Source of the DNA: Atribacterota bacterium
GTDB taxonomy: Bacteria > Atribacterota > Phoenicimicrobiia > Phoenicimicrobiales > Stramentimicrobiaceae
Assembly (NCBI GenBank): GCA_040767965.1
Contig: JAXGNR010000005.1
Coordinates: forward strand, 64,001 to 128,000
Length of the DNA: 64,000 bases
Reading direction: 5' to 3'
Shown: in pieces, positions 46,160-59,772 of the stretch
Numbering within the stretch: the stretch's first letter is position 1
Layout of the letters: the number at the start of each line of letters is the position of its first letter
Notes under the pieces: model-generated
The model's database searches: none
What the model was told of the DNA's origin: nothing
Seen by the model: only the letters and a program-made list of their open reading frames with translations
Made by a program: the position numbers and the translations under genes

Positions 46160-46305
46160 TAAATCAGGCGGAAAAACAACAGAACAGAAACTCAATTAAA
46201 ACTTTATTATTCTTAGTAACAGCATATTTAAATATTTATATTCAATATAAAAGAATATTGTTGAATCTAGTTAAAAAAGAAAAAATTGAAAGAAAAGAGG
46301 CTAAA

Positions 46306-46788
46306 ATGTGGTTTATATATTTAACCGGAACTATATTATCTTTATCTTTCTTGCTGGATAGGGGAAAAACTAAATTAGCCCTGATAAAGGCTGCAAAAAG
46401 ATTTTTGTTTATTATACCTTCTTTTATGATAATGCTAGTATTTGTGTCGATAATATTATTTCTTTTCCCGCAAGAAAAAATAGTAATTTACCTTAACCAG
46501 GGTAACCAGATGTTAAATGTCATCTTGGCTGCATTGGTAGGCTCAATTACTATTATGCCGGGTTTTGTGGTTTTCCCACTAGCAGGTATTCTGAGAAATA
46601 GTGGAATATCTTATACTGTTATTGCTTCCTTTACTACTACTTTGATGATGGTGGGAACAATAACATTTCCTGTTGAGATAACTTATTTTGGCAAAAAAGT
46701 AACTGTAATCCGTAATGTGGTCAGTTTTTTAATCGCAATTATTATTGCATTAGCGATCGGGATTTATTTTAAAGAGGTTTCTTTATGA
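46306..46788 (+). CDS. Small permease subunit (DUF318/ArsP-like pair, first gene)
   Basis: Hydrophobic, GSITIMPGFVVFPLAG, E...FG..VT..RN. Confidence 0.7.
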   Translation: MWFIYLTGTILSLSFLLDRGKTKLALIKAAKRFLFIIPSFMIMLVFVSIILFLFPQEKIVIYLNQGNQMLNVILAALVGSITIMPGFVVFPLAGILRNSGISYTVIASFTTTLMMVGTITFPVEITYFGKKVTVIRNVVSFLIAIIIALAIGIYFKEVSL

Positions 46789-47318
46789 AAAAAGATACAA
46801 AAAATAAAAAAAATAAATATATTCAGCTTAGCATTATAGCTTTTTATCTGGTTTTCATTTTACTTTCATTTATTTTTAAAGTTGATGCGGGAGTTGAAAT
46901 AGGGAAAAATTTAATTTCTTTTTTGCTTTATATGCTAAAAATATTACCCTGTGCTTTCATATTAATTGGCTTGTTTGAGGTTTGGGTTTCCAGAGAAAAA
47001 GTTGAAAAACATCTTGGTTATGCAGGTGGTATAAGAGGGTATATCTGGGCAATAATTTTAGCAGGCACAATGGCAGGAGGTCTGCTGGTTGCATTGCCTG
47101 TTTCATCGGCATTATATCATAAAGGTGCCCGATTAAGTGTTATTTTTACCTTCATAAGTGCTTCTGCAATAGTGAGAATACCTATGACTTTATTTGAGGC
47201 TTCTTTTTTAGGAATAGAATTTACTATAATAAGATGGCTTATTTCAATTCCTTTAATAATTACCTTTTCCATATTTTTAGAAAAATATTTAAAAAAACAA
47301 AATTTTTCAATTACATAA
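46785..47318 (+). CDS. Small permease subunit (pair, second gene)
   Basis: Hydrophobic, RIPMTLFEASFLG, ATGA overlap with the upstream gene. Confidence 0.7.
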   Translation: MKKDTKNKKNKYIQLSIIAFYLVFILLSFIFKVDAGVEIGKNLISFLLYMLKILPCAFILIGLFEVWVSREKVEKHLGYAGGIRGYIWAIILAGTMAGGLLVALPVSSALYHKGARLSVIFTFISASAIVRIPMTLFEASFLGIEFTIIRWLISIPLIITFSIFLEKYLKKQNFSIT

Positions 47319-47918: not shown

Positions 47919-48785
47919 ATGGATAAAAAAGAAATAAAAAGTATTGCAGCAGATTATATTAAAAATTCAAATGATAATTACATTAATGAAAAATATGCCA
48001 TTTCAAAAAAATTAATTGGTACTAAAATATTTAATATACCTATATTTTCCTTTGGCAGTGCAGATGATGAATTATTTAAAAAACTAAAAGAACCATCAGT
48101 TATAGGTGAACATTTTTTATTACCGAAAGAATGGCTAACAAATGCCAAAACCGTAATTTCTTTCTTTTTGCCATTTAGTAAACAAGTACGAGAAAGCAAT
48201 TACCATGATCAAAAATGGCCTTCAGCAGAATGGTTACATGCCCGCATAGAAGGTCAGGAATTACTGAATAAATTATGTTCTTTTTTAAAGGAAAAAATAG
48301 AAAAGGAAAATTACAAAAGTATTGTACCTATATTTGATTCAAGGTTTTGGAGTAATACAAATGATAAGAAAAAAGAACTAATTAAGAATAAAAACCAGCT
48401 TGATCCACCTCTTTTTACCAGCAATTGGTCAGAAAGGCATACAGCATACATCTGTGGTCTAGGCACTTTTGGCCTTTCCAAAGGATTAATAACAAAAAAA
48501 GGAATAGCTGGCAGGTTTGGAAGTATTGTTACAGAAAAATATTTCCGACCAGATAAGCGAAAATATGACATGGTATCTGAATATTGCAGCAGGTGTGGGG
48601 AATGCGCAAAGCAATGTCCTGTAAATGCAATTTCTTTGCAGAATGGCAAAAACCATTTTATTTGTTCTGATTTTTTGAAGATTACCAGATCAAAATATAG
48701 TCCCCGTTATGGCTGCGGGAAGTGTCAGGTAAATGTCCCCTGTGAAAACAAAATACCTGTTAAATCCCTTAAAGAAAGTACTTAG
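47919..48785 (+). CDS. QueG / reductive-dehalogenase-like 4Fe-4S protein
   Basis: SNWSERH, GLGTFG, CxxCxxCxxxCP and GCGKCQ...PC motifs. Confidence 0.75.
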   Translation: MDKKEIKSIAADYIKNSNDNYINEKYAISKKLIGTKIFNIPIFSFGSADDELFKKLKEPSVIGEHFLLPKEWLTNAKTVISFFLPFSKQVRESNYHDQKWPSAEWLHARIEGQELLNKLCSFLKEKIEKENYKSIVPIFDSRFWSNTNDKKKELIKNKNQLDPPLFTSNWSERHTAYICGLGTFGLSKGLITKKGIAGRFGSIVTEKYFRPDKRKYDMVSEYCSRCGECAKQCPVNAISLQNGKNHFICSDFLKITRSKYSPRYGCGKCQVNVPCENKIPVKSLKEST

Positions 48786-48797
48786 TTAATTTTATAG

Positions 48798-49064
48798 TTA
48801 ATGCCGATCCCTTTCCAGGTCATAAATCATTTTTTCTAAATACCATTCTTCAGATCGATTTGGGTATTTTTGCTTAAGATTTGCTAATAGCCTGTCTATT
48901 GTTTCATCTGCTAACTCAGGGGTCAGACGTAATAAGGAATAACACCTTTGTCGCAATACCTTTTTCTTGCCGGGTACCTTGCTTTTTTTAGCTATATAAA
49001 ATATATAAATATAGATTACTACCAGAAATAAGGCTGTCCCGAAGATATAGAAAACCTGCTTCAT
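48798..49064 (-). CDS. Small membrane-anchored hypothetical protein
   Basis: N-terminal TM segment, AAAGG SD, YP.RSEEWYLEK..YDL.RDR motif. Confidence 0.65.
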   Translation of the reverse strand: MKQVFYIFGTALFLVVIYIYIFYIAKKSKVPGKKKVLRQRCYSLLRLTPELADETIDRLLANLKQKYPNRSEEWYLEKMIYDLERDRH

Positions 49065-49301
49065 AATAAAATACCTTTTTAGAATATGATTTATAAAAAT
49101 AGTTTCTTAAAAATGCCAGTCACATCTTTAGTTGTATTGGTAGGTTATTTTAACACTACTATAAATGTTTTTACAAGTTTTTATAAGCATATGTTATAAT
49201 TTAAAATCAAAAAGTTGCCAATCACAAAAAAACAGCCGAACAGAAAAATTGATAGCATTTATTTGTTTAAAAAATATTGTTTTGGATAATGGAGAGATGT
49301 T

Positions 49302-50339
49302 TTGATCGATATTGGAAGAGAAGAAGAGTTAATATCTTATTTACGCAAAATTAATTTTATCTCAACAGGAAATCCAGTCCAGATAAGCGAGTTTGGCGGA
49401 GGAGTCTCCTGTAAAGTAATTCAGGTAAAAACAAACGGAAATAGCTTTGTAATAAAACAGGCTTTATCAAAATTAAAAGTAAAAGACAGTTGGTATTCTG
49501 ACAGAAGTAGAATAATAAATGAAAGAAAATGTTTAGAAGTATATCAGGAGATAATTCCCGATTTCGTTCCCGGGATTTTATATCATGATGACGCCAACTA
49601 TCTTTTTATCATGGAATCAATATCGCCCAATGCAATTCCCTGGAAAAATATACTGTTAAAAGGGAATATTGATTATGATGTAGGGAGAAAAATATCATTT
49701 GCCCTGGCGAAAGTTCATGAACATTCATCAGGGGATTCCAAAATTAAAAATATATTCAATAGTGATAAATTTTTTATTGAGTTACGAATAGAACCTTATC
49801 TGGAGACAATTAAACAAAAACATCCGGCTTTAAATAATCTTATCAGTCAGGCAATCTATTTGCTTTTAACAGACAAAACAGTCCTGGTACATGGTGATTA
49901 TAGCCCAAAAAATATCCTAGTATTACATAAAAATATATTTATCCTGGATTTTGAGGTTGCTCATTGGGGGAATCCTATCTTTGACCTTGCTTTCTTAACC
50001 AACCATCTGCTGCTGAAGTCTATTAAAAATCCCCGGTTGATAGATGAATATCTGGGATTAATGATAGAGATGGTAAATGTGTATTTTGAAAACCGGGGAA
50101 GCGTAAATCGCGCGATTGTTGAAAAAGATACTATTAATTTATTAGCCCTTTTGTTTTTAGCAAGAGTTGATGGAAAATCCCCTGCTGAGTATATTGAAGC
50201 AGAAAGTGATAAAAAAGCAGTGAGAGAACTTAGCTATTCAATGTTATTAGAAGATAATTATGAAAAATATGAACAATTGCCTGATTTATTCAAAAAATAT
50301 TTATTGAAATTTAAGAAAGTAGAGGAATTAGATAAATAA
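49302..50339 (+). CDS. APH / methylthioribose-kinase-like phosphotransferase
   Basis: GGGVS loop, VIKQALSKL, LVHGDYSPKN, LDFE. Confidence 0.85.
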   Translation: MIDIGREEELISYLRKINFISTGNPVQISEFGGGVSCKVIQVKTNGNSFVIKQALSKLKVKDSWYSDRSRIINERKCLEVYQEIIPDFVPGILYHDDANYLFIMESISPNAIPWKNILLKGNIDYDVGRKISFALAKVHEHSSGDSKIKNIFNSDKFFIELRIEPYLETIKQKHPALNNLISQAIYLLLTDKTVLVHGDYSPKNILVLHKNIFILDFEVAHWGNPIFDLAFLTNHLLLKSIKNPRLIDEYLGLMIEMVNVYFENRGSVNRAIVEKDTINLLALLFLARVDGKSPAEYIEAESDKKAVRELSYSMLLEDNYEKYEQLPDLFKKYLLKFKKVEELDK

Positions 50340-51637
50340 TGAGAGGCAGCAAAATTAAAGCAATTAACGCAAGGCAAATATATGATTCAAGAGCCAACCC
50401 GACAGTTGAAGTAGAGATATTTTTGGAAGGAGATATCATTGGTAGAGGAATAGTTCCTTCTGGAGCATCGAAAGGACGTTTTGAAGCATTAGAGTTGAGG
50501 GATGGTGATAAAGGCAGATTAAACGGTAAAAGTGTATTCAATGCTATTGAAAACATTAAAAATATTATTTCACCCAGACTATTGGGTATTGATGTTACTC
50601 AGCAAGAGAAGATAGATCAAATTTTAATAGAATTGGATGGCACTGAAAACAAATCCCGTTTAGGGGCAAATGCAATTTTGGGTGTTTCAATGGCGGCTGC
50701 ATGGGCTGGTGCCAGTTTTTTTAGAGTTCCACTTTATCGATACCTGGGAGGAGATGAAGCAAATCTGATACCAACTCCAATGATTCAAATTATTGGTGGC
50801 GGAGCCCATGCTAATAATGTTATTGATCTGCAGGATTATTTGGTGATACCGATGAAATCTGACAGTTTTGCTTCAGGCTATGAAATGGTTGTTAATGTCT
50901 ATGAAAGCACTAAAAAAATATTTAACCAAAAAAATAAGCCTTTAGGGATTGCTGATGAAGGTGGTTTTTGGCCTTCAGATTTTAAAACTAATGAGGAAGG
51001 ACTGGAATTGTTAATGAGCGGGATAATTGCCGCTGGTTATATACCAGGGGAAGATATTGCAATTGCCCTTGATATTGCCTCCAGTGAGTTTTATGATCAA
51101 AAAATAAAAAAGTATGTATTTGATCTAGAAAAAAAACAATTCACAAGTGCTGAATTTGTAGACTATTTGTGCAGTATTCAACAGAGATATCCAATAATTT
51201 CTATTGAAGATGGGATGGCTGAAGATGATTGGGAAGGCCATCAGCAATTATCAAAAAAACTAAAAGGAAAAGTACAGCTTATAGGTGATGACTTATTCAC
51301 TACTAATGTTAAACGAATAAAAAAAGGTTATGACTTTGGTATTAATAATGCTGTATTGATTAAAATGAATCAGATAGGTACCTTATCAGAAACATTAAAT
51401 GTAATAAAATATACTAAGGAAATAGGATATTTGCCTGTAATTTCAGCAAGATCTGGTGAAACTGAAGATGTGACAATAACTCATTTGGCAATAGCTACCA
51501 ATGCAGGCCAGTTAAAAGTAGGATCTGTAGTCAGGTCAGAACGAACTGTTAAATGGAATGAGGTTATCCGTATTGAAGATAAACTTGGCCAAAAAGCAAA
51601 ATATCTTGGCAAGCATGTTTTTGATAGTATTATTTGA
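50339..51637 (+). CDS. Enolase paralog with a divergent active site
   Basis: DSRANPTVEVE, VPSGAS, DEGG, SIEDG, GDDLF and LIKMNQIG are present. SARSGET replaces SHRSGET and QDYL replaces QEFM. Confidence 0.9.
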   Translation: MRGSKIKAINARQIYDSRANPTVEVEIFLEGDIIGRGIVPSGASKGRFEALELRDGDKGRLNGKSVFNAIENIKNIISPRLLGIDVTQQEKIDQILIELDGTENKSRLGANAILGVSMAAAWAGASFFRVPLYRYLGGDEANLIPTPMIQIIGGGAHANNVIDLQDYLVIPMKSDSFASGYEMVVNVYESTKKIFNQKNKPLGIADEGGFWPSDFKTNEEGLELLMSGIIAAGYIPGEDIAIALDIASSEFYDQKIKKYVFDLEKKQFTSAEFVDYLCSIQQRYPIISIEDGMAEDDWEGHQQLSKKLKGKVQLIGDDLFTTNVKRIKKGYDFGINNAVLIKMNQIGTLSETLNVIKYTKEIGYLPVISARSGETEDVTITHLAIATNAGQLKVGSVVRSERTVKWNEVIRIEDKLGQKAKYLGKHVFDSII

Positions 51638-51855
51638 AATTATACTGGGACCATATTTTTTTCCATCGTAAATATAAAAGCAAGATGGATTCATTAAAAA
51701 AACTATATCTAAGCTAAATTGGAATTGCCATAATTTGAGCATTCCTTTTTCTTATTGGGAAAAACAGAAAGAAAAACAAAAAGATCTATTTGTGATCATA
51801 TTCTGAAAACTATTACTTGTTATCGGAAAAAATATAGTTTGCAGGAGGTTAAGTT

Positions 51856-52386
51856 ATGAAAAAAATAATTAAAGGAATTACAATAGAGTGTATTGTTGGA
51901 GATATTGCAACTCAAAGTGATATAACTGCAGTGGTTAATGCCGCAAATGCTCAATTAAGAACAGGCGGCGGTGTAGCTGGTGCACTCCATAGGGCTGCCG
52001 GGCCAGGATTAGAAGAAGAATGTCGTCCTTTGGCTCCAATTAAGCCAGGAGAAGCAGTTATAACCGGGGCCCATAAATTGCCAAATCGTTTTGTTATTCA
52101 TTGTCTGGGCCCAGTATATGGAATTGATAATCCAGAAGATGTTTTACTGGCTAATTGTTACCGAAATTGTCTTAAAATTGCTGAAGAACATCATATCGAT
52201 TCAATTGCATTTCCTGCAATCTCCACCGGTTCCTTTGGATATCCTATTCAGGAGGCTACTGAAATTGCCATATATGCAATTCAGGAGATGATCTGCAAGC
52301 TGAAAAGTATAAAGCATATTCGTTTTGTTTTGCATGACCAGAATGTACTATATATTTATGAAAATTTAATAGAAAGAATTTTATAG
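51856..52386 (+). CDS. Macro domain protein (YmdB-like O-acetyl-ADP-ribose deacetylase)
   Basis: Motifs GDI, VNAAN, GGGVAGA and FPAISTGSFGYP. Confidence 0.92.
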   Translation: MKKIIKGITIECIVGDIATQSDITAVVNAANAQLRTGGGVAGALHRAAGPGLEEECRPLAPIKPGEAVITGAHKLPNRFVIHCLGPVYGIDNPEDVLLANCYRNCLKIAEEHHIDSIAFPAISTGSFGYPIQEATEIAIYAIQEMICKLKSIKHIRFVLHDQNVLYIYENLIERIL

Positions 52387-52607: not shown

Positions 52608-53627
52608 TTGAAGAAAAGTTTACTGATTTTATTGGTCATGATAATGGCTGTTTTTGCCTTAACCGGGTGTGATGGCATTACTCCGGCTGAAGGTGAAGGA
52701 GAAGGTGAGGGAGAAGGCGAATTTGAAGGGTCCTGTCCTGAAATAAGCCTGTCTGGTTCAGTTGTTATTGATGGCAAAACTTACGTAAGGGGTATGAGTA
52801 TTTGGGACTTGGAAGGCCCTGAATTATTAGATCTTTATGATGATATTACTCTTACCATAACCTATAAAACCCCTACTGAAGGAACTGCTGCTTATTTATC
52901 TGGTTTTACCTATGGGTTAATTGACACTATTTTTGAGGATGTTATTAAAGACAAAGAAATAGGATTGCTTGACTTAGAAATTCCCATGTTCCCTAATGAA
53001 GATTATACAGTGTACACAGGTTCTTTAAAGCCATACTTGTTAGGCTGGCAAACTGATTGCACTGCTTTTATGATCAAAGTAATTTCCTGTGATGGAGATT
53101 GTGTTTGCAAATTACCTTTTATAGTAGACAATAAACCTCCGTATGCAAGCATAGAAATAGATTTGGACGAAGAGGCTTGTCCTTGTGATGGATGCGCTTT
53201 AACATTTACTTCTGAAATTTTAGAACCAGACTGTGATGATGATATCCTTTGCTGTGGTGATGATTGTTCTGGTTTTGCAGGTTGGTCTATTGCTATTTAT
53301 GATACAAACCCACATAATAAGTGCTGCTCTATTCCATGCGCAGAACCAGTGTTTACCTGTTCGGGAACAGATTGCCCAATTGAATGCACTACAGATTGTT
53401 TGGAAGAAGGTACGTATTATGTAATTACAAATCTGGTAGACAATGTTGGTATAGAAAAAGAATACTATGTAAAAATTGAAATTGGTTCTGATTGTGATAT
53501 AGTAGAAATCATTGAATATGAAGCAAACATCAACATGGATCAATGCCCAGACTGGGAAAATGATTATTATAACATCACTGAAAGTAAAATTTATGGTGAT
53601 TGCGGAAAATTTGAATTTATTGGTTAA
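52608..53627 (+). CDS. Acidic cysteine-rich lipoprotein with a (GE)n linker, function unknown
   Basis: SD AAAGGAG with TTG start, lipobox LTGC, EGEGEGEGEGE, 23 Cys in total, own terminator. Confidence 0.85.
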   Translation: MKKSLLILLVMIMAVFALTGCDGITPAEGEGEGEGEGEFEGSCPEISLSGSVVIDGKTYVRGMSIWDLEGPELLDLYDDITLTITYKTPTEGTAAYLSGFTYGLIDTIFEDVIKDKEIGLLDLEIPMFPNEDYTVYTGSLKPYLLGWQTDCTAFMIKVISCDGDCVCKLPFIVDNKPPYASIEIDLDEEACPCDGCALTFTSEILEPDCDDDILCCGDDCSGFAGWSIAIYDTNPHNKCCSIPCAEPVFTCSGTDCPIECTTDCLEEGTYYVITNLVDNVGIEKEYYVKIEIGSDCDIVEIIEYEANINMDQCPDWENDYYNITESKIYGDCGKFEFIG

Positions 53628-53643
53628 TTAAAACAATATACTG

Positions 53644-53679
53644 AATAAAAAAGGGCCTTTTAAAAGGCCCTTTTTTATT
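53644..53679. terminator. Bidirectional terminator (perfect 36-bp palindrome)
   Basis: AATAAAAAAGGGCCTTTTAAAAGGCCCTTTTTTATT between convergent genes. Confidence 0.9.
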
Positions 53680-54304
53680 TTAAAATTTTTTTAACCTCAT
53701 GTACCGGAATAATATTGGGTTTTTTACCTAAAATAGCTTGCATTACTGTCAGGTAGGCAGATGTTTCCAGAGTTTCCATTCTGGCATAAGCTGTTTCAAT
53801 TGAGCTTCCACAAGTAGTAGCTCCATGATTTTCCATAATAAATACATTGTATCCATCTCGCACTTCTTTAACAAATTTTTCTGCAAATAATTCAGTACCC
53901 GGCTTGCAATAGGGCAAATAAGCAATTTTTTCTAATATTACAAGCGCTTCAGGAAGAGTATTTAATAAGATTTGCAGATTATTGATTGCGCATAATAAAA
54001 CATTTCTGGGATGGGCATGGAAAATGCTTTTAATATCTTTTTTGTTCTGATAAATTTTTATATGCATTTTAATCTCTGAAGAAGGTTTATATTTTCCCTC
54101 TAATTGTTTACCATTAAGATCGGTAACAACAATATCTTCTTTAGTAAAAAAATGTTTAATAAAATTAGAAGGGGTTATATAAATTCTATCATTTAACATG
54201 ATACTCATATTGCCTCCAGTAGATTCGGTGAGCTGTCTATCCCAGGTTAACCGTACATAGCTGACAAATTTTTGTAATAGTCTTTCCTCAATACAATTAT
54301 TCAA
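53675..54304 (-). CDS. fucA: Class II aldolase (L-fuculose-1-phosphate aldolase-like)
   Basis: GGNMS, ITPS, PSSEIKMH, HAHP and NHG motifs. Divergent from fucU-fucI. Confidence 0.75.
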   Translation of the reverse strand: MNNCIEERLLQKFVSYVRLTWDRQLTESTGGNMSIMLNDRIYITPSNFIKHFFTKEDIVVTDLNGKQLEGKYKPSSEIKMHIKIYQNKKDIKSIFHAHPRNVLLCAINNLQILLNTLPEALVILEKIAYLPYCKPGTELFAEKFVKEVRDGYNVFIMENHGATTCGSSIETAYARMETLETSAYLTVMQAILGKKPNIIPVHEVKKILK

Positions 54305-54530
54305 AATTTCCTCCTGACTTTATTGTATTTTCTAAAAATATTTTGCTATTACTTTTAAAAATTATATCATTGTTTCTAAAAAAAAGTTTAAAAGTCAAAA
54401 TATTTTAAAAAAACTGTTATAATTAATATCATAGGATTTTAAATAAAAATATATAAAAATGCTAATCCTTCAATTATTGCAAATTTCCAAAAGATCTTTC
54501 AATCTATTTTTTTAAGGAGGATTCTCTTTT

Positions 54531-54950
54531 ATGTTGAAAAATATTCCCCCAATACTATCTCCCACATTAATGTTATCAATTATGGAAATGGGACACGGTG
54601 ATGAAATAGTTCTAGCAGATGGGAATTATCCCGTTGAGTCAACTGCAACCATTTCAGTAAGAGCTGATGGACATGGAATTCCAGAATTATTAGAGGCAAT
54701 TTTAAAGTTTTTCCCCTTAGATCAACAAGCCATAAACAATGTCTTTTTCATGAAAAAAGATGAAAAGGAAAAACCATCAATCTGGCAAAAATACCAAACA
54801 ATTCTTGATAATTCTCAAGAAAAATATGCAATTGAAAAATTAGACAGGTTCCAGTTTTATGAAAGGGCAAGAGAGGCTTACACTATTGTTGCTACTGGAG
54901 AAAAAACACTCTATGCAAATATAATATTAAAAAAAGGTGTTGTGGAATAA
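54531..54950 (+). CDS. fucU: L-fucose mutarotase (RbsD/FucU)
   Basis: MGHGDEIVLADGNYP, RFQFYERA and YANIILKKGV motifs. Confidence 0.92.
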   Translation: MLKNIPPILSPTLMLSIMEMGHGDEIVLADGNYPVESTATISVRADGHGIPELLEAILKFFPLDQQAINNVFFMKKDEKEKPSIWQKYQTILDNSQEKYAIEKLDRFQFYERAREAYTIVATGEKTLYANIILKKGVVE

Positions 54951-55031
54951 CAAATTTATTTAAAGGATGCTGTAAGGGGATTTTTAAAATATAAAATCTT
55001 TTAATTAATAAAAGTAAAAAAGGAGAGTTTT

Positions 55032-56819
55032 ATGAAATTTGAGAACAGATTAATCGGGTCAATGCCAAAAGTTGGAATCAGGCCTATTATTGACGGGAGA
55101 AGAAGAGGGGTACGGGAATCGTTGGAGAAACAGACAATAGAGATGGCCAAGGATGTTGCAAAATTAATAAGTTCCAACTTGAGACATTCTAATGGCACGA
55201 ATGTTGAATGTGTTCTAGCTGATACCACTATTGGAGGTTTTGCTGAAGCAGCAAAGTGTGCCGATAAGTTCTCCAGGGAAAATGTGGGGGTTTCCCTAAG
55301 TGTAACTCCATGTTGGTGTTATGGAATGGAAACTATTGATCTGGATCCGTATTTGCCAAAAGCCATTTGGGGTTTCAATGGAACCGAAAGACCTGGGGCA
55401 GTTTATCTGGCAGCTGCCCTTGCTGGTCATGATCAGTTAGGGTTACCAGCTTTTGGAATTTATGGAAAAAATGTAAGAGATTTAGAAGATAAGAATATTC
55501 CTGAAGATGTGCAATCAAAAATATTTCAATTTGTCAAATCCGGATTAGCAGTTTCTTATATGAAAGGAAAATCATACCTGGCTTTAGGCGGAGTTTCTAT
55601 GGGGATTGCCGGATCAATAGTAAATCCAGAATTTTTTCAAGACTATTTAGGAATGCGAACTGAATTTGTTGATATGTCTGAATTTGTACGCCGTTTAAAA
55701 GAAGAAATTTTTGACAAAGAGGAATTTACTAGAGCTCTTGATTGGGCAAAAGAAAATTGTAGAGAAGGTGTTGATAGAAACAATGAAAAAATAAGACACT
55801 CTCGCAAAAAGAAAGATGATGAATGGGGTACAGTTATAAAAATGACTTTGATTGCCAGAGATTTAATGATTGGAAATAAAAAATTGATTGATTTGGGCTA
55901 TGAAGAAGAAGCAGAAGGCCATAATGCGCTAGCTGCAGGATTTCAAGGACAAAGGCAGTGGACAGATAATTTCCCTGACGGAGATTTTATGGAAACAATA
56001 CTTAATACTTCCTTTGACTGGAATGGAGTTAGAGAGCCATTTATCTTTGCAACAGAGAATGATTGTTTAAACGGTGTAGCTATGCTATGGAATCATCTTA
56101 TTTCCAATCGGGCTCAGATGTTTTCTGATGTAAGAACATTCTGGAGCCCTGAAGCAGTTTTCAGAGTAACTGGAAAACAATTAACAGGAAAAGCTGAAAA
56201 TGGTATAATTCATCTGATTAATTCAGGATCCACTACCCTTGATGCAACCGGTCAGCAAAAAGATAATCAGCAGTCAGTGATGAAACCTTTCTGGGAATTA
56301 AACCAGGAAGACGTGAAAGCTTGTTTAGAAAATACCAGCTGGAGTCCAGCAAATTTGGAATATATGCGTGGAGGTGGTTTTTCATCAACATTCTGGACTA
56401 AAGGCGAAATGCCAGTAACCATGTCCAGAATTAATTTAATTAAAGGAATAGGCCCGGTTTTACAAATTGCCGAAGGTTATACAGTTGAATTATTGGAGGA
56501 GATAAGCTTTATTTTAACTGAAAGGACTGACCCTGCCTGGCCAACCACCTGGTTTGTCCCTATATTAACTGGAAAAGGTGCGTTTCGAGATGTTTATTCA
56601 GTAATGAATCATTGGGGAGCAAATCATGGAGCTATCAGTTATGGACATATCGGAAAAGATTTAATTACACTAGCTTCCATACTGAGAATTCCAGTAGCAA
56701 TGCATAATATTTCTGAAGAAAATATATTCAGACCTAAGACATGGGGCTCGTTTGGTACTCAAGATCTGGAAGGAGCAGATTATAGGGCATGTAAAAATTT
56801 TGGACCATTGTATCGATAG
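55032..56819 (+). CDS. fucI: L-fucose isomerase
   Basis: Motifs [43 protein letters not shown] and WGANH. Confidence 0.96.
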
Positions 56820-56934: not shown

Positions 56935-59772
56935 TTAGTAGGTAAATATTTTAAACCTGGTTTTCTGAATAACTTCAAAAAAGATAGCTACTAAATCAGG
57001 GTCAAACTGAGTTCCTGCTTTCTTAGATATCTCTTCTAATGCTTCTTTTTGACTCATTACCTCTTTATAAGGTCTTTTTGTCTGCATGGTGTCAAAGGCA
57101 TCAATGATTGCAATTATCCTGGACAATATTGGAATTTCTTGACCAGTAAGACCCACCGGATATCCTGATCCATCCCATTTTTCGTGATGATAAAGGATTT
57201 CTTTGCAGATTGATGCAAAATCAGGAATGTTTTTGGTAATTCGGTATCCTATCTGGCAATGAGTTTTCATTATTTCCCATTCAGAAGGAGAAAGCGGTTC
57301 TTTTTTTAATAAGATACTTTCAGGTATGCCGATTTTGCCGATATCATATAATAATACCAATAAATGAAGCCTGTTTAATTCATAATAATTGAGATTGATT
57401 TTTTCACCAATTTCCAGAGCTATGGCAGCCATACAATTTCTGTTATTTTTTATATGAGGGTTTCTTTCTGACAGAATCGTAAGAAAGGCATTTAAAAGAT
57501 GCTTTTCTCTACTTTTAGTGCTGAACAATTTATTCTGATACATTTTTTCATCTGCTTCTCTAAAAAGCTCTTCTGATGTCTTTGATGAAGTTGCCTGTGT
57601 GGAATACCCTACAGAAATGTTTGGATTTAAATAAGCTGGAGAAAAATTATTCTGCTGACAGTAAGAAAGAAGTCTCTGGCAAAAAGCCTCAGCATCATTA
57701 GAGCTTGTGTTTGGTAAAATGATAGCAAATTCATCACCTCCTAAGCGAGCTATAATATCTCCACCTCGAGAAATATTTTTAAGTAATTGAGCCAGGTTTT
57801 TCAACAATTGATCTCCCTGTTGATGTCCAAAAGCATCATTAACTGCTTTTAAGCCATTAACATCAATCATTACTACATTAAGCGGATAATAACGGGGATT
57901 ATTCATTCTGTTTAATTCTTCTTCTAAAAAAGATCTATTATATAAACCGGTAAGAGAATCATGAAAACTAATATAAGTTATTTCTTCTTCGCTTTGCTTG
58001 CGGATGATGGCAGTGGCAACCTGATCAGCCACAATTTCCATTAATTTAATATCTTTTTCAGTATAACAATTAGGATTATAGTAGTTCTGGACAGTCATAG
58101 CACCGATTACATTCCCTTCAATTTTTAAAGGAACGCTAAGCCAGCAAATATCTTTTGTTATTTCACCAGGGTTTTTAACATCATTATTATCAATTAATTG
58201 ACATATATTGGAATAATTCAGCAATAAGGATTGCCCTCTTTCAAGTAAATATCCTGTTAAAGTGTTTTTGTAAATTAAATTTTCTGAAGAGAAATTATTT
58301 TCTTTTTCATCATATGCATATACAAAATCAAGCTGGTCACGTATTTTATCAAGCAAGGCAATGTAAAAATTTTTAGCGTCGATTACCTGGTTTAGTTTTT
58401 TATGAATAAGAGAATAAAGCTCTGACAGTTTTATTTGGGAATTAGCTCCCCTGGAGATATGGTAAAGGACCTGGTTTAAATTTTCATTTTGTTTTTGTTC
58501 GCTTATATCCTGATAAAGAGCAAATACTCCTTGTACTTTTTCATTATTTTTAATCTGAGAGGTTGAGATTTGTACAGGGATAACAGTTCCATCTTTCTTT
58601 CTGCGTTCAGTTTCATATTTTATCAGTTTTGAAAAAGGAGCTTTTTCTGTTAATTTTTTTCCTTCTTTAATTTTGCCAGAAGGATAAAAATTAATTTTAT
58701 CAATATTGATACCCTGGATCTCTTCCAGAGAGTAGCCAAATAGTTCTGTAAACTTTTGGTTAATGTCTAGAATGAAACCTTTATTATCATGGTAAATTGC
58801 AGCAAGAGGGTTATTTTTAAACAAGCTGGCAAATTTCTCTTCACTATTGCGAATTTTATCTTCTGCTTTTTTTTGTTCGCTTATATCCTGATAAAGGCAA
58901 ACTATTCTACTATTAAAATTGTCTATTTTTAAGGGTGAAGCAGATATGATTACCGGAAATGTAGTGCCATCTTTTTTCTTTCTTATAGATTCATATCTAA
59001 CTGGTTTATTTGCTGCAATCCTGGTTAATATTTCGCCCTGTTTTTTGGTTTTGGGAGGATGCAGGAATCCTTGATCAATATTTTTTCCCAGAAGCTCTTC
59101 TTTGGTAAAACCAAATACCTCAGTAAAACGGGAATTAACATCTAGAATAGTTCCTTCCGGGTCTATGTAAACCAAAGATTCTGGATTATATTGAAATAAA
59201 TGAGAGAATTCAAGGCGGCTTTGCCTTAAATGTTCTTCGATTTTCTTTTTTTCAATAACAGTTGCAATTTGCTCAGAAACAAATTCCAATAGGTGAATAT
59301 CTTTTTCGGAATAAATGTCTGGTATGTTGTAATTTACTACTGCCAGAGATCCAATTATTTCATCGCCATATTTAAGAGGAACTCCCAACCAGGAGGTTTT
59401 TGGCGTCAGAGTTCCCAGTTTGTTAATGCTTATGACATTTTTTGCTGCCATCCCAAGTATTTGCTCATAATTAACCCATAATGACTTGCCATATTTGATA
59501 TTGTAATTTGCAAGAGTTCCTGATGCATCAAACTGGTTAACTTCTGAGCCTAACCGGTCTTTTTCATCAACAAAATAGGAAAATGTTACCATATCTTGAT
59601 TTTTTTCTTTTAATGCAATATGTAAATTGGTTGCGTCGATAATAGTATTTAGTTCTTTATAAATGATACTGTAAAGTTCCTGTAATGAAATATCAGAATT
59701 AGCAGCCTTTGAAATATTATAAAGAACTTTATCTAAGTTTTTATTTTTATTGATTTTCTTTTTTGTACCCAT
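56935..59772 (-). CDS. GAF-PAS-PAS-GAF-GGDEF-HD-GYP c-di-GMP signalling protein
   Basis: Two GAF domains (WLGVPLK, WLSVPLK), two PAS domains (KKDGT..PV), HDSLTGLYN, RLGGDEF, HHEKWDGSGYP. Confidence 0.9.
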   Translation of the reverse strand: MGTKKKINKNKNLDKVLYNISKAANSDISLQELYSIIYKELNTIIDATNLHIALKEKNQDMVTFSYFVDEKDRLGSEVNQFDASGTLANYNIKYGKSLWVNYEQILGMAAKNVISINKLGTLTPKTSWLGVPLKYGDEIIGSLAVVNYNIPDIYSEKDIHLLEFVSEQIATVIEKKKIEEHLRQSRLEFSHLFQYNPESLVYIDPEGTILDVNSRFTEVFGFTKEELLGKNIDQGFLHPPKTKKQGEILTRIAANKPVRYESIRKKKDGTTFPVIISASPLKIDNFNSRIVCLYQDISEQKKAEDKIRNSEEKFASLFKNNPLAAIYHDNKGFILDINQKFTELFGYSLEEIQGINIDKINFYPSGKIKEGKKLTEKAPFSKLIKYETERRKKDGTVIPVQISTSQIKNNEKVQGVFALYQDISEQKQNENLNQVLYHISRGANSQIKLSELYSLIHKKLNQVIDAKNFYIALLDKIRDQLDFVYAYDEKENNFSSENLIYKNTLTGYLLERGQSLLLNYSNICQLIDNNDVKNPGEITKDICWLSVPLKIEGNVIGAMTVQNYYNPNCYTEKDIKLMEIVADQVATAIIRKQSEEEITYISFHDSLTGLYNRSFLEEELNRMNNPRYYPLNVVMIDVNGLKAVNDAFGHQQGDQLLKNLAQLLKNISRGGDIIARLGGDEFAIILPNTSSNDAEAFCQRLLSYCQQNNFSPAYLNPNISVGYSTQATSSKTSEELFREADEKMYQNKLFSTKSREKHLLNAFLTILSERNPHIKNNRNCMAAIALEIGEKINLNYYELNRLHLLVLLYDIGKIGIPESILLKKEPLSPSEWEIMKTHCQIGYRITKNIPDFASICKEILYHHEKWDGSGYPVGLTGQEIPILSRIIAIIDAFDTMQTKRPYKEVMSQKEALEEISKKAGTQFDPDLVAIFFEVIQKTRFKIFTY

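Follow-up and report, generated by a model that had tools for sequence, protein, structure and literature searches.

A kinase-linked clade of enolase paralogs with an altered active site: a candidate phosphorylation and elimination module for small hydroxy acids

A 64,000-nucleotide stretch of the genome of an Atribacterota bacterium (assembly GCA_040767965.1, contig JAXGNR010000005.1, positions 64,001 to 128,000), referred to below as the window, carries a kinase gene that overlaps the gene of an enolase-family paralog. The kinase and this kind of enolase are functionally coupled, as indicated by their linkage in 64 of 80 loci, by 28 fusion proteins and by their co-occurrence even where the two genes lie apart. 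The coupling had been proposed from the window alone in an initial annotation of this DNA, and the comparison across genomes bears it out. The linked enolases carry Asp and Ala where yeast enolase has Glu168 and His373 (the D/A clade in what follows). With slightly less than even confidence, we consider that they may embody a second, ancient function of the enolase family, the dehydration of a 2-phospho acid other than D-2-phosphoglycerate, together with a new MtnK-fold 2-kinase. The pair is organized as follows (coordinates of the window).

49302-50339, + strand: MtnK-fold, APH-superfamily small-molecule kinase, 345 aa, TTG start (open reading frame [ORF] list, family and fold matches)
50339-51637, + strand: enolase-family paralog of the D/A clade, 432 aa, ATG start (ORF list, profile matches, alignment)
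50337-50339 and 50339-50341, + strand: kinase stop TAA and enolase ATG, sharing one base as TAATG

Both frames and their overlap had been described in the initial annotation and were recovered at these coordinates. The TTG start of the kinase agrees with the N terminus of its family (MIDI..., alignment A1) and with a TTG-start homologue in another locus (L016).

Linkage and fusion of the kinase and the enolase

One genome per species was scanned with the kinase alignment, which returned at least 585 relatives; the linkage counts come from the best 80 loci, and many of the genomes sampled are metagenome-assembled genomes (MAGs). In the 64 linked loci the enolase homologue lies on the same strand as the kinase, downstream of it in 63 and upstream in one, and in 58 of them the two are directly adjacent, with a gap between the blast alignments of at most 193 nt. 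These counts exclude chance adjacency. The kinase loci are spread over more than ten phyla, namely Atribacterota, Bacillota (including Negativicutes), Spirochaetota, Planctomycetota, Chloroflexota, Acidobacteriota, Verrucomicrobiota, Bacteroidota, Pseudomonadota (Gamma- and Betaproteobacteria), Actinomycetota, haloarchaea (Halobacteria) and Nitrososphaerota.

No linked enolase was found in 16 of the 80 loci, one of which extends just 75 nt downstream. Of the 15 unlinked kinases that are informative, ten group together in a pure Dehalococcoidia clade (support 1.0), so one event accounts for the majority of the unlinked cases. A D/A enolase is encoded elsewhere in 9 of 11 genomes with an unlinked kinase, with no kinase in its 1.5-kb flanks. 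Among 40 relatives of the genome of the window (G000), only G013 has the kinase, and there the same pair occurs in the same setting.

A search restricted to long proteins gave 71 kinase homologues. Kinase-enolase fusions, with the kinase at the N terminus, account for 28 of them, and their enolase part shows SARSGE[TS] or SARSGDT in 23 cases and ADEGG in 26. One natural fusion of this kind is the 761-aa protein of Seonamhaeicola maritimus (P0271). Three proteins from the exhaustive search with the window enolase (P0123, P0153 and P0146) align with the kinase over their N-terminal 320 to 340 residues and carry the signature in their enolase part. Another 33 of the 71 homologues are fusions of the kinase with a D-isomer-specific 2-hydroxyacid dehydrogenase, the domain of which is nearest to the PGDH and glyoxylate/hydroxypyruvate reductase models, at scores below their cut-offs. 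A pathway running from 2-oxo acid to D-2-hydroxy acid, then to 2-phospho acid and enol phosphate, is suggested by these dehydrogenase fusions. The remaining ten comprise fusions to UxuA (two), PfkB, FGGY, a 3-hydroxyacyl-CoA dehydrogenase, an SGL-type domain, PF14486 and an alpha/beta hydrolase, and two APH-only proteins. The kinase relatives joined to mannonate dehydratase (UxuA), PfkB, FGGY and 3-hydroxyacyl-CoA-dehydrogenase domains are P0336, P0340, P0305, P0333 and P0276; because of such fusions, the kinase family probably covers several sugar-acid specificities.

Active-site signature of the linked enolases

The window enolase scores 553.1 bits against TIGR01060 (cut-off, 300), 183.6 bits against Enolase_N (PF03952) and 318.2 bits against Enolase_C (PF00113), and contains the motifs LDIASSE, SIEDG, IGDDL, LIKMNQIG, ADEGG, SARSGET, SGAS and GGAH. 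Read against the functional roles of the residues of yeast enolase, it keeps the Mg ligands, Lys342 (yeast Lys345), Glu207 (yeast Glu211) and Arg371/Ser372 (yeast Arg374/Ser375), and it has Asp166 at the position of yeast Glu168, Ala370 at that of His373 and Ala205 before DEGG. Yeast D246/E295/D320, K345, E211, R374/S375, S39 and H159 are invariant in an alignment of 43 linked enolases (A3). All 58 linked enolases of full length preserve the Mg ligands, Lys345, His159, Ser39 and Arg374/Ser375, and Glu211 lies within DEGG in 56, the other two having HEGG or EEGG. The position of Glu168 is Asp in all 58; that of His373 is Ala in 57 and Gly in L043, and the residue preceding DEGG is Ala in 57.

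The exhaustive search gave 24,731 matches at E ≤ 0.001. A 196-sequence alignment was then assembled from the linked enolases, the enolases of the same genomes and those members of the top 150 matches that have 395 to 470 residues. Asp and Ala occur together in 78 of the aligned enolases and Glu and His in about 95, and only two are mixed (one Glu with Ala, one Asp with His). Glu168 and His373 are found in all 94 of the E/H enolases compared, a group defined by these residues, and are lacking in the window protein and its clade. Column-wise comparison of the 78 D/A with the 94 E/H enolases yielded exactly three discriminating columns, E168D, H373A and the change of Gly to Ala before DEGG. When these columns were removed, one branch of the FastTree tree (support 0.81) set apart 77 of the 78 D/A enolases, along with 12 others, made up of eight odd variants (including the eno3 paralog of G000) and four E/H enolases. 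Judged from this tree and alignment, the D/A enolases form essentially one distinct, old clade, and the conserved triple change would reshape only the C3-facing part of the active site.

All the enolase motifs quoted in the initial annotation (DIASSEF, SIEDG, GDDLF, LIKMNQIG, DEGG, SARSGET, QDYL, GASKG, LKVG and VKWN) are present in the translation. Among the positions that it regarded as changed, QDYL (E168D) and SARSGET (H373A) define the family, and GASKG, VKWN and LKVG turned out to be lineage specific or variable: GASKG occurs in three of the tabulated enolases, the window copy included, KWN in about half of the linked ones, and the threonine position of IKTG varies in canonical enolases as well. 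The enlarged C3 pocket that it derived from the Glu-to-Asp and His-to-Ala changes is a reasonable reading of these replacements; the third signature change, from Gly to Ala, adds bulk. The five best matches to the motif region in the PDB all read SHRSGET, and hence no solved structure of the D/A clade was found there.

The D/A enolase and the housekeeping enzymes

The genome of the window (2.33 Mb in 30 contigs, 98% complete) has seven enolase-family genes that score above the eno cut-off. The separate canonical eno on which the earlier reading hinged is among them: the best-scoring gene (C5:208975-210252, 682.5 bits) shows SGASTG, QEFM, GDEGG, SHRSGET, IKTG and AKYN, and the window enolase ranks second with 553 bits. 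Of 15 other genomes checked for a canonical enolase, 14 encode one besides their D/A enolase, the exception being a Chloroflexia MAG with only a broken, divergent second match. The D/A enolase comes on top of the housekeeping enzyme. Conventional glycerate kinases, of the Gly_kinase or the MOFRL type, were encoded in all five isolate or complete carrier genomes tested, so plain D-glycerate does not require the module; three MOFRL-type genes are found in G000.

The other five enolase genes of G000 are far more divergent (L012, C10:95887-98620; L014, C6:22823-25464; L015, C11:51374-54065; L013, C10:10808-14861; L011, C10:83928-85211). Three of its paralogs (eno3, eno5 and eno6) directly adjoin DUF4147/MOFRL glycerate-2-kinase-type genes, and eno4 is flanked by 2-oxoacid-dehydrogenase E1/E2 genes, SDRs and acetate-kinase/PTA-like genes. 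Glu211 is lost in these four, and their His373-site motifs are SSRSREA, SMRSNDT and SIRSKST (twice). The eno5 gene (C6:22823-24090, in L014) is frameshifted, split or misassembled: its sequence falls into two overlapping frames, encoding a 94-aa N-terminal and a 351-aa C-terminal piece. Among the 40 relatives of G000, Enolase_C matches number none or one in 36 genomes, two in two and three in two. A MOFRL-type gene with a third, divergent enolase-family gene immediately after it was also seen in the haloarchaeon Halopenitus (G044, C12:7086-9668, L108), the genome of which has a kinase-D/A pair as well, so that the pairing of MOFRL genes with enolase paralogs is not confined to the Atribacterota genome.

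Family, fold and motifs of the kinase

The kinase scores 42 bits against Pfam APH (PF01636; cut-off, 23.2) and has the catalytic features of that family, the HxDxxxxN loop and the metal-binding Asp, as HGDYSPKN and LDFE. Against the NCBIfam MtnK model (TIGR01767) it reaches 72.2 bits, below the equivalog cut-off of 275. PF02595 (class I, Gly_kinase) and the class II MOFRL families PF13660/PF05161 are absent from its Pfam matches, and it is thus not a member of the known glycerate-kinase families, although it may act in a similar way. An AlphaFold2 model from a 50-sequence alignment (pLDDT 94.8, pTM 0.92) was compared by Foldseek with solved structures, and the best matches were MtnK structures (9a5i, 2pyw, 2pun and 2olc; TM 0.79 to 0.84, 15 to 18% identity), followed by PsiK. 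MtnK alone was detectable in a sequence search of the PDB (E = 3e-6).

The HGD[YF]SPKN loop, DxE and the family-specific R[VI]DGKSPxEY are invariant in alignments A1 and A2 and in the set of 81 kinases. The ATP-site Lys52 and the basic residues R70, K115, R162, R288 and K292 are likewise invariant in the kinase alignment, and the basic residues would suit an anionic substrate. More than 5000 relatives were significant among 8000 scored candidates, and they are annotated only as "phosphotransferase" or "methylthioribose kinase"; an annotation-cluster (Atlas) search with the kinase returned generic "phosphotransferase" names only, apart from the lead to the dehydrogenase fusions. In G000 the kinase is single copy.

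Gene neighbourhoods of the pair

The gene directly upstream of the pair on the same strand encodes a GntP permease in four loci, an SSF symporter in three and an aldehyde dehydrogenase in five (Microbulbifer, Flammeovirga, Vibrio hannami, an Akkermansia-like MAG and a Chloroflexia locus). A D-2-hydroxyacid dehydrogenase lies directly downstream in L028, L061 and L080, and the neighbour cluster to which it belongs is found in five loci. CdaR/PucR-type regulators and RraA-like aldolases recur on the same strand, LutC- and LutB-like proteins are also recurrent neighbours, and L024 has a GarL-like HpcH aldolase and a GH38 mannosidase beside the pair. These recurrent neighbours are genes of small 2-hydroxy-acid metabolism, many of them recalling known D-glycerate routes.

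Beside the pair in L018 are a LarAH10-family 2-hydroxyacid racemase and a lactate permease. The LarAH10 family is broad and its native substrate is unknown, according to the excerpted text of PMC11770544, so this neighbour does not fix the substrate. A methyltransferase homologue of the MtaA/CmuA family (URO-D fold) accompanies the pair in L018, L022, L023, L024, L026 and L032, which are Clostridia, Negativicutes and Spirochaete loci; in L022, L023 and L024 it directly follows the enolase, with no corrinoid protein in view.

Proposed chemistry and alternatives

The pair may constitute a self-contained two-step catabolic module. The MtnK-fold kinase would transfer phosphate from ATP to the 2-hydroxyl of a small D-2-hydroxy-3-substituted carboxylic acid. 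The enolase paralog would then bind the 2-phospho acid through two Mg2+ and the phosphate site formed by Arg and Ser; abstraction of the C2 proton would fall to the conserved Lys (yeast K345) and expulsion of the C3 substituent to the conserved Glu (yeast E211), and the product, phosphoenolpyruvate (PEP) or a 3-substituted homologue, would enter central metabolism. Judging from the neighbours and the dehydrogenase fusions, the substrate would be a small, glycerate-type D-2-hydroxy acid, and the conserved remodelling of the enolase, together with the conventional glycerate kinases of the five genomes, argues that it is not simply D-glycerate. We tentatively propose, as a reading that falls just short of an even chance, that the kinase 2-phosphorylates a glycerate-like D-2-hydroxy acid, probably not D-glycerate, and that the D/A enolase turns the product into PEP or a homologue of it. 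If the D/A enolases dehydrate a 2-phospho acid other than D-2-phosphoglycerate, candidate acids are L-glycerate, a tetronate or 4-deoxytetronate, and a 3-O- or 3-S-substituted lactate; we infer which hydroxyl the kinase phosphorylates, which acid it takes and what product is formed.

Several observations weigh against this proposal. The acceptors of the nearest solved relatives of the kinase, MtnK and PsiK, are not carboxylic acids but the anomeric hydroxyl of a sugar or a phenol. When 837 neighbour ORFs were clustered all against all, no third conserved gene emerged; the next commonest cluster occurs in 14 of 81 loci, mostly the unlinked Dehalococcoidia ones, and ORF calling followed a simple longest-ORF rule, which misfires on GC-rich DNA. 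Since the D/A enolases are one clade, they could have inherited their signature as another solution to 2-phosphoglycerate chemistry, with no change of substrate. The neighbour themes (CdaR, the GarL-like aldolase and the hydroxypyruvate-reductase-like dehydrogenase) are, moreover, those of known D-glycerate pathways, and for this reason an ordinary D-glycerate reading remains strong. The kinase would then be a fourth, MtnK-fold D-glycerate 2-kinase and the D/A enolase an isozyme making PEP, the two co-inherited for flux or regulation and the signature being neutral or kinetic. Such chemistry would agree with the CdaR-like regulator and GntP permease (6 loci), the GarL-like aldolase and GH38 mannosidase of L024, the D-2-hydroxyacid dehydrogenases nearest to PGDH and glyoxylate/hydroxypyruvate reductase, the aldehyde dehydrogenases nearby and the xylose-isomerase-like TIM barrels among the neighbours, which we take to have the fold of hydroxypyruvate isomerase. 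It would also agree with the 553 bits on the eno equivalog model and with the retention of the phosphate, carboxylate and metal ligands and of both acid/base residues. However, E168 and H373, invariant in the 94 canonical enolases that they define, are both replaced across the D/A clade, and the E168Q mutation reportedly nearly abolished the activity of the yeast enzyme in the work of Poyner and Reed and of Brewer. Both halves of the module would also be redundant, as 14 of 15 genomes have a canonical enolase and all five of those tested for it a conventional glycerate kinase. We regard this explanation as less likely than the proposal above.

The enolase may also perform enolate chemistry other than dehydration, as a racemase or epimerase of a 2-phospho acid or by expelling something other than hydroxide, such as a methoxy, amino, thiol, sulfonate or phosphate group. 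The changes are limited to residues that serve the C3-hydroxyl step, other enolase paralogs of G000 lack Glu211 altogether, and several Clostridia and Spirochaete loci have an MtaA/CmuA-family homologue after the pair. The enolase superfamily carries out all these reaction types, as is also stated in PMC6946804. The general acid Glu211 is nevertheless kept in its DEGG context in 56 of the 58 linked enolases, the discriminating columns show no replacement suited to an anionic or cationic leaving group, and the methyltransferase neighbour is confined to one group of related loci; we regard this alternative as improbable. It is less probable still that the kinase does not feed the enolase at all, acting as a regulatory or protein kinase on it or forming a resistance cassette of an APH-type inactivator and an insensitive enolase copy. 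The kinase does belong to the APH/protein-kinase-like superfamily, and duplication of a target beside a modifying enzyme is a known logic of resistance. Its closest fold, however, is that of the metabolic kinase MtnK and not that of the APHs, and the 33 dehydrogenase fusions, with those to UxuA, PfkB and FGGY, place it in small-acid and sugar metabolism. The pair is chromosomal in its more than ten phyla, and its neighbours are permeases and catabolic genes, not mobile elements.

Promoter region and surroundings of the pair in the window

Three short elements lie upstream of the kinase.

49170-49175, + strand: TTTACA, -35-like hexamer, 19 nt upstream of TGTTATAAT
49192-49200, + strand: extended -10-like motif TGTTATAAT, within the 237-nt gap that precedes the kinase
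49291-49296, + strand: GGAGAG, ribosome-binding-like site, 5 nt ahead of the TTG start

The extended -10 of the initial annotation is present as a motif; the promoter it stood for could not be demonstrated. A generic promoter scan of 48700-52000 gave 21 sites against 15.9 ± 4.1 expected, with no significant enrichment, and missed the TGTTATAAT site with its spacers of 16 to 18 nt. The count of TGNTATAAT in the window is 16, compared with 7.2 ± 3.05 in shuffles. A promoter upstream of the kinase is plausible but not demonstrable, given a generic scan at background and a motif at about twice its frequency in shuffles. In the same region no terminator-like site was found after the enolase, the single match sitting inside that gene. 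Contigs from RNA-labelled libraries match the pair without differences at 50475-50739 (X17, 265 nt) and 51358-51546 (X20, 189 nt), and a 190-nt contig of X15, probably a DNA library, spans the kinase/enolase junction. Contigs this short cannot show transcription or an operon transcript, and no claim of expression is therefore made for the pair; stretches that they leave uncovered carry no meaning either.

Further downstream are fucose genes.

53675-54304, - strand: class II aldolase, best match the FucA model (below its cut-off)
54531-54950: FucU mutarotase
55032-56819: FucI isomerase, 1056 bits

They lie where the initial annotation had placed them, near the pair (53675-56819). The tie to fucose that it saw in them was not supported: tblastn with the FucI and FucU of the window found no match in any of 80 related loci, and the class II aldolase was matched only in L017, the nearest relative.

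Two adjacent half-size permease genes lie upstream of the pair on the same strand (46258-47318), with weak matches to ArsP_1 and "predicted permease". In L017 the half-permeases sit directly before a small reverse ORF that is followed by the kinase, and from this position they could be the transporter of the module in this lineage. A link to arsenic biology through the weak ArsP_1 match was rejected as an over-reading. The enolase is followed by a macro-domain protein (51856-52386; O-acetyl-ADP-ribose deacetylase-like, 180 bits against a cut-off of 200), which also follows the pair in L017 with 75% identity. Beyond it are a predicted lipoprotein of 339 aa (52608-53627), with a (GE)n run past the signal-peptide cysteine and a body very rich in Cys and Asp, and, on the - strand, a 945-aa protein (56935-59772) in which PAS-like repeats and GGDEF (RLGGDEFAI) and HD-GYP-type (HHEKWDGSGYP) motifs were recognized by eye.

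Significance

Enolase is among the most conserved enzymes known, and the enolase family proper is usually treated as isofunctional. Automatic annotation labels every member "phosphopyruvate hydratase"; with the D/A clade, many genomes would be misannotated as having two glycolytic enolases, and a catabolic step for a small hydroxy acid would be missing from metabolic maps. The kinase family is large and equally unannotated. No description of a kinase-linked or E168D/H373A enolase was found in open-access papers and bioRxiv, subscription journals being mostly outside that search. The "enolase paralogs" of PMC6946804 are MR-type superfamily members in SAR202, and those of PMC4390880 are archaeal enolase duplicates in a ribosomal superoperon; as presented in the excerpts of these papers, neither is this pair.

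If the proposal is true, the pair would represent a widespread, undescribed bacterial and archaeal route in which small hydroxy acids are phosphorylated and then turned by elimination into PEP-type compounds, and the MOFRL-kinase and enolase-paralog pairs of G000 would be further variations of the same theme. The pair is compact and found in cultured organisms (among them Microbulbifer sp. HZ11, Vibrio hannami, Flammeovirga sp. SJP92, Sporomusa termitida and Desulfitobacterium hafniense), and it is directly testable with a small substrate panel.

Comparison with known systems

MtnK (TIGR01767; PDB 2pyw, 2olc and 2pun) has the closest fold to the kinase and shares its HGD catalytic loop and DxE motif. 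The window kinase is about 50 residues shorter, however, has its own invariant C-terminal R[VI]DGKSPxEY, is only 15 to 18% identical and scores far under the MtnK cut-off, and its family is tied to enolase or 2-hydroxyacid dehydrogenase and not to methionine-salvage genes. The D/A enolase resembles glycolytic enolase (phosphopyruvate hydratase) in its two-domain family, length, Mg ligands, Lys base, Glu acid and Arg/Ser phosphate site. It differs from it in having Asp and Ala at E168 and H373 and Ala for Gly before DEGG, and in being an extra copy beside the canonical enolase (14 of 15 genomes checked) that is tied or fused to a kinase.

A precedent for chemistry on a 2-phosphoglycerate analogue outside glycolysis is carboxyphosphonoenolpyruvate synthase, the enolase homologue of the phosphinothricin pathway. 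Going by its description, that enzyme is set apart from the present pair as biosynthetic and restricted to a narrow actinomycete group, and it is not known to be linked to a kinase or to belong to the D/A clade. With glycerate 2-kinase and enolase, the serine cycle, the glucarate/galactarate route (GarL-GarR-GarK) and the non-phosphorylative Entner-Doudoroff pathway follow the logic proposed here, from hydroxy acid to 2-phospho acid to enol phosphate, and the CdaR-like regulator, GarL-like aldolase and hydroxypyruvate-reductase-like dehydrogenase beside some pairs add to this likeness to known glycerate pathways. Those pathways use the housekeeping enolase and no dedicated paralog, and the window kinase is unrelated to both known glycerate-kinase folds, for which the same genomes have separate genes. 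The MOFRL/DUF4147 pairs of G000 come near in arrangement, with a hydroxy-acid-kinase-type gene directly beside an enolase-family gene three times over, but their kinases have another fold and their enolases are far more altered, with Glu211 lost.

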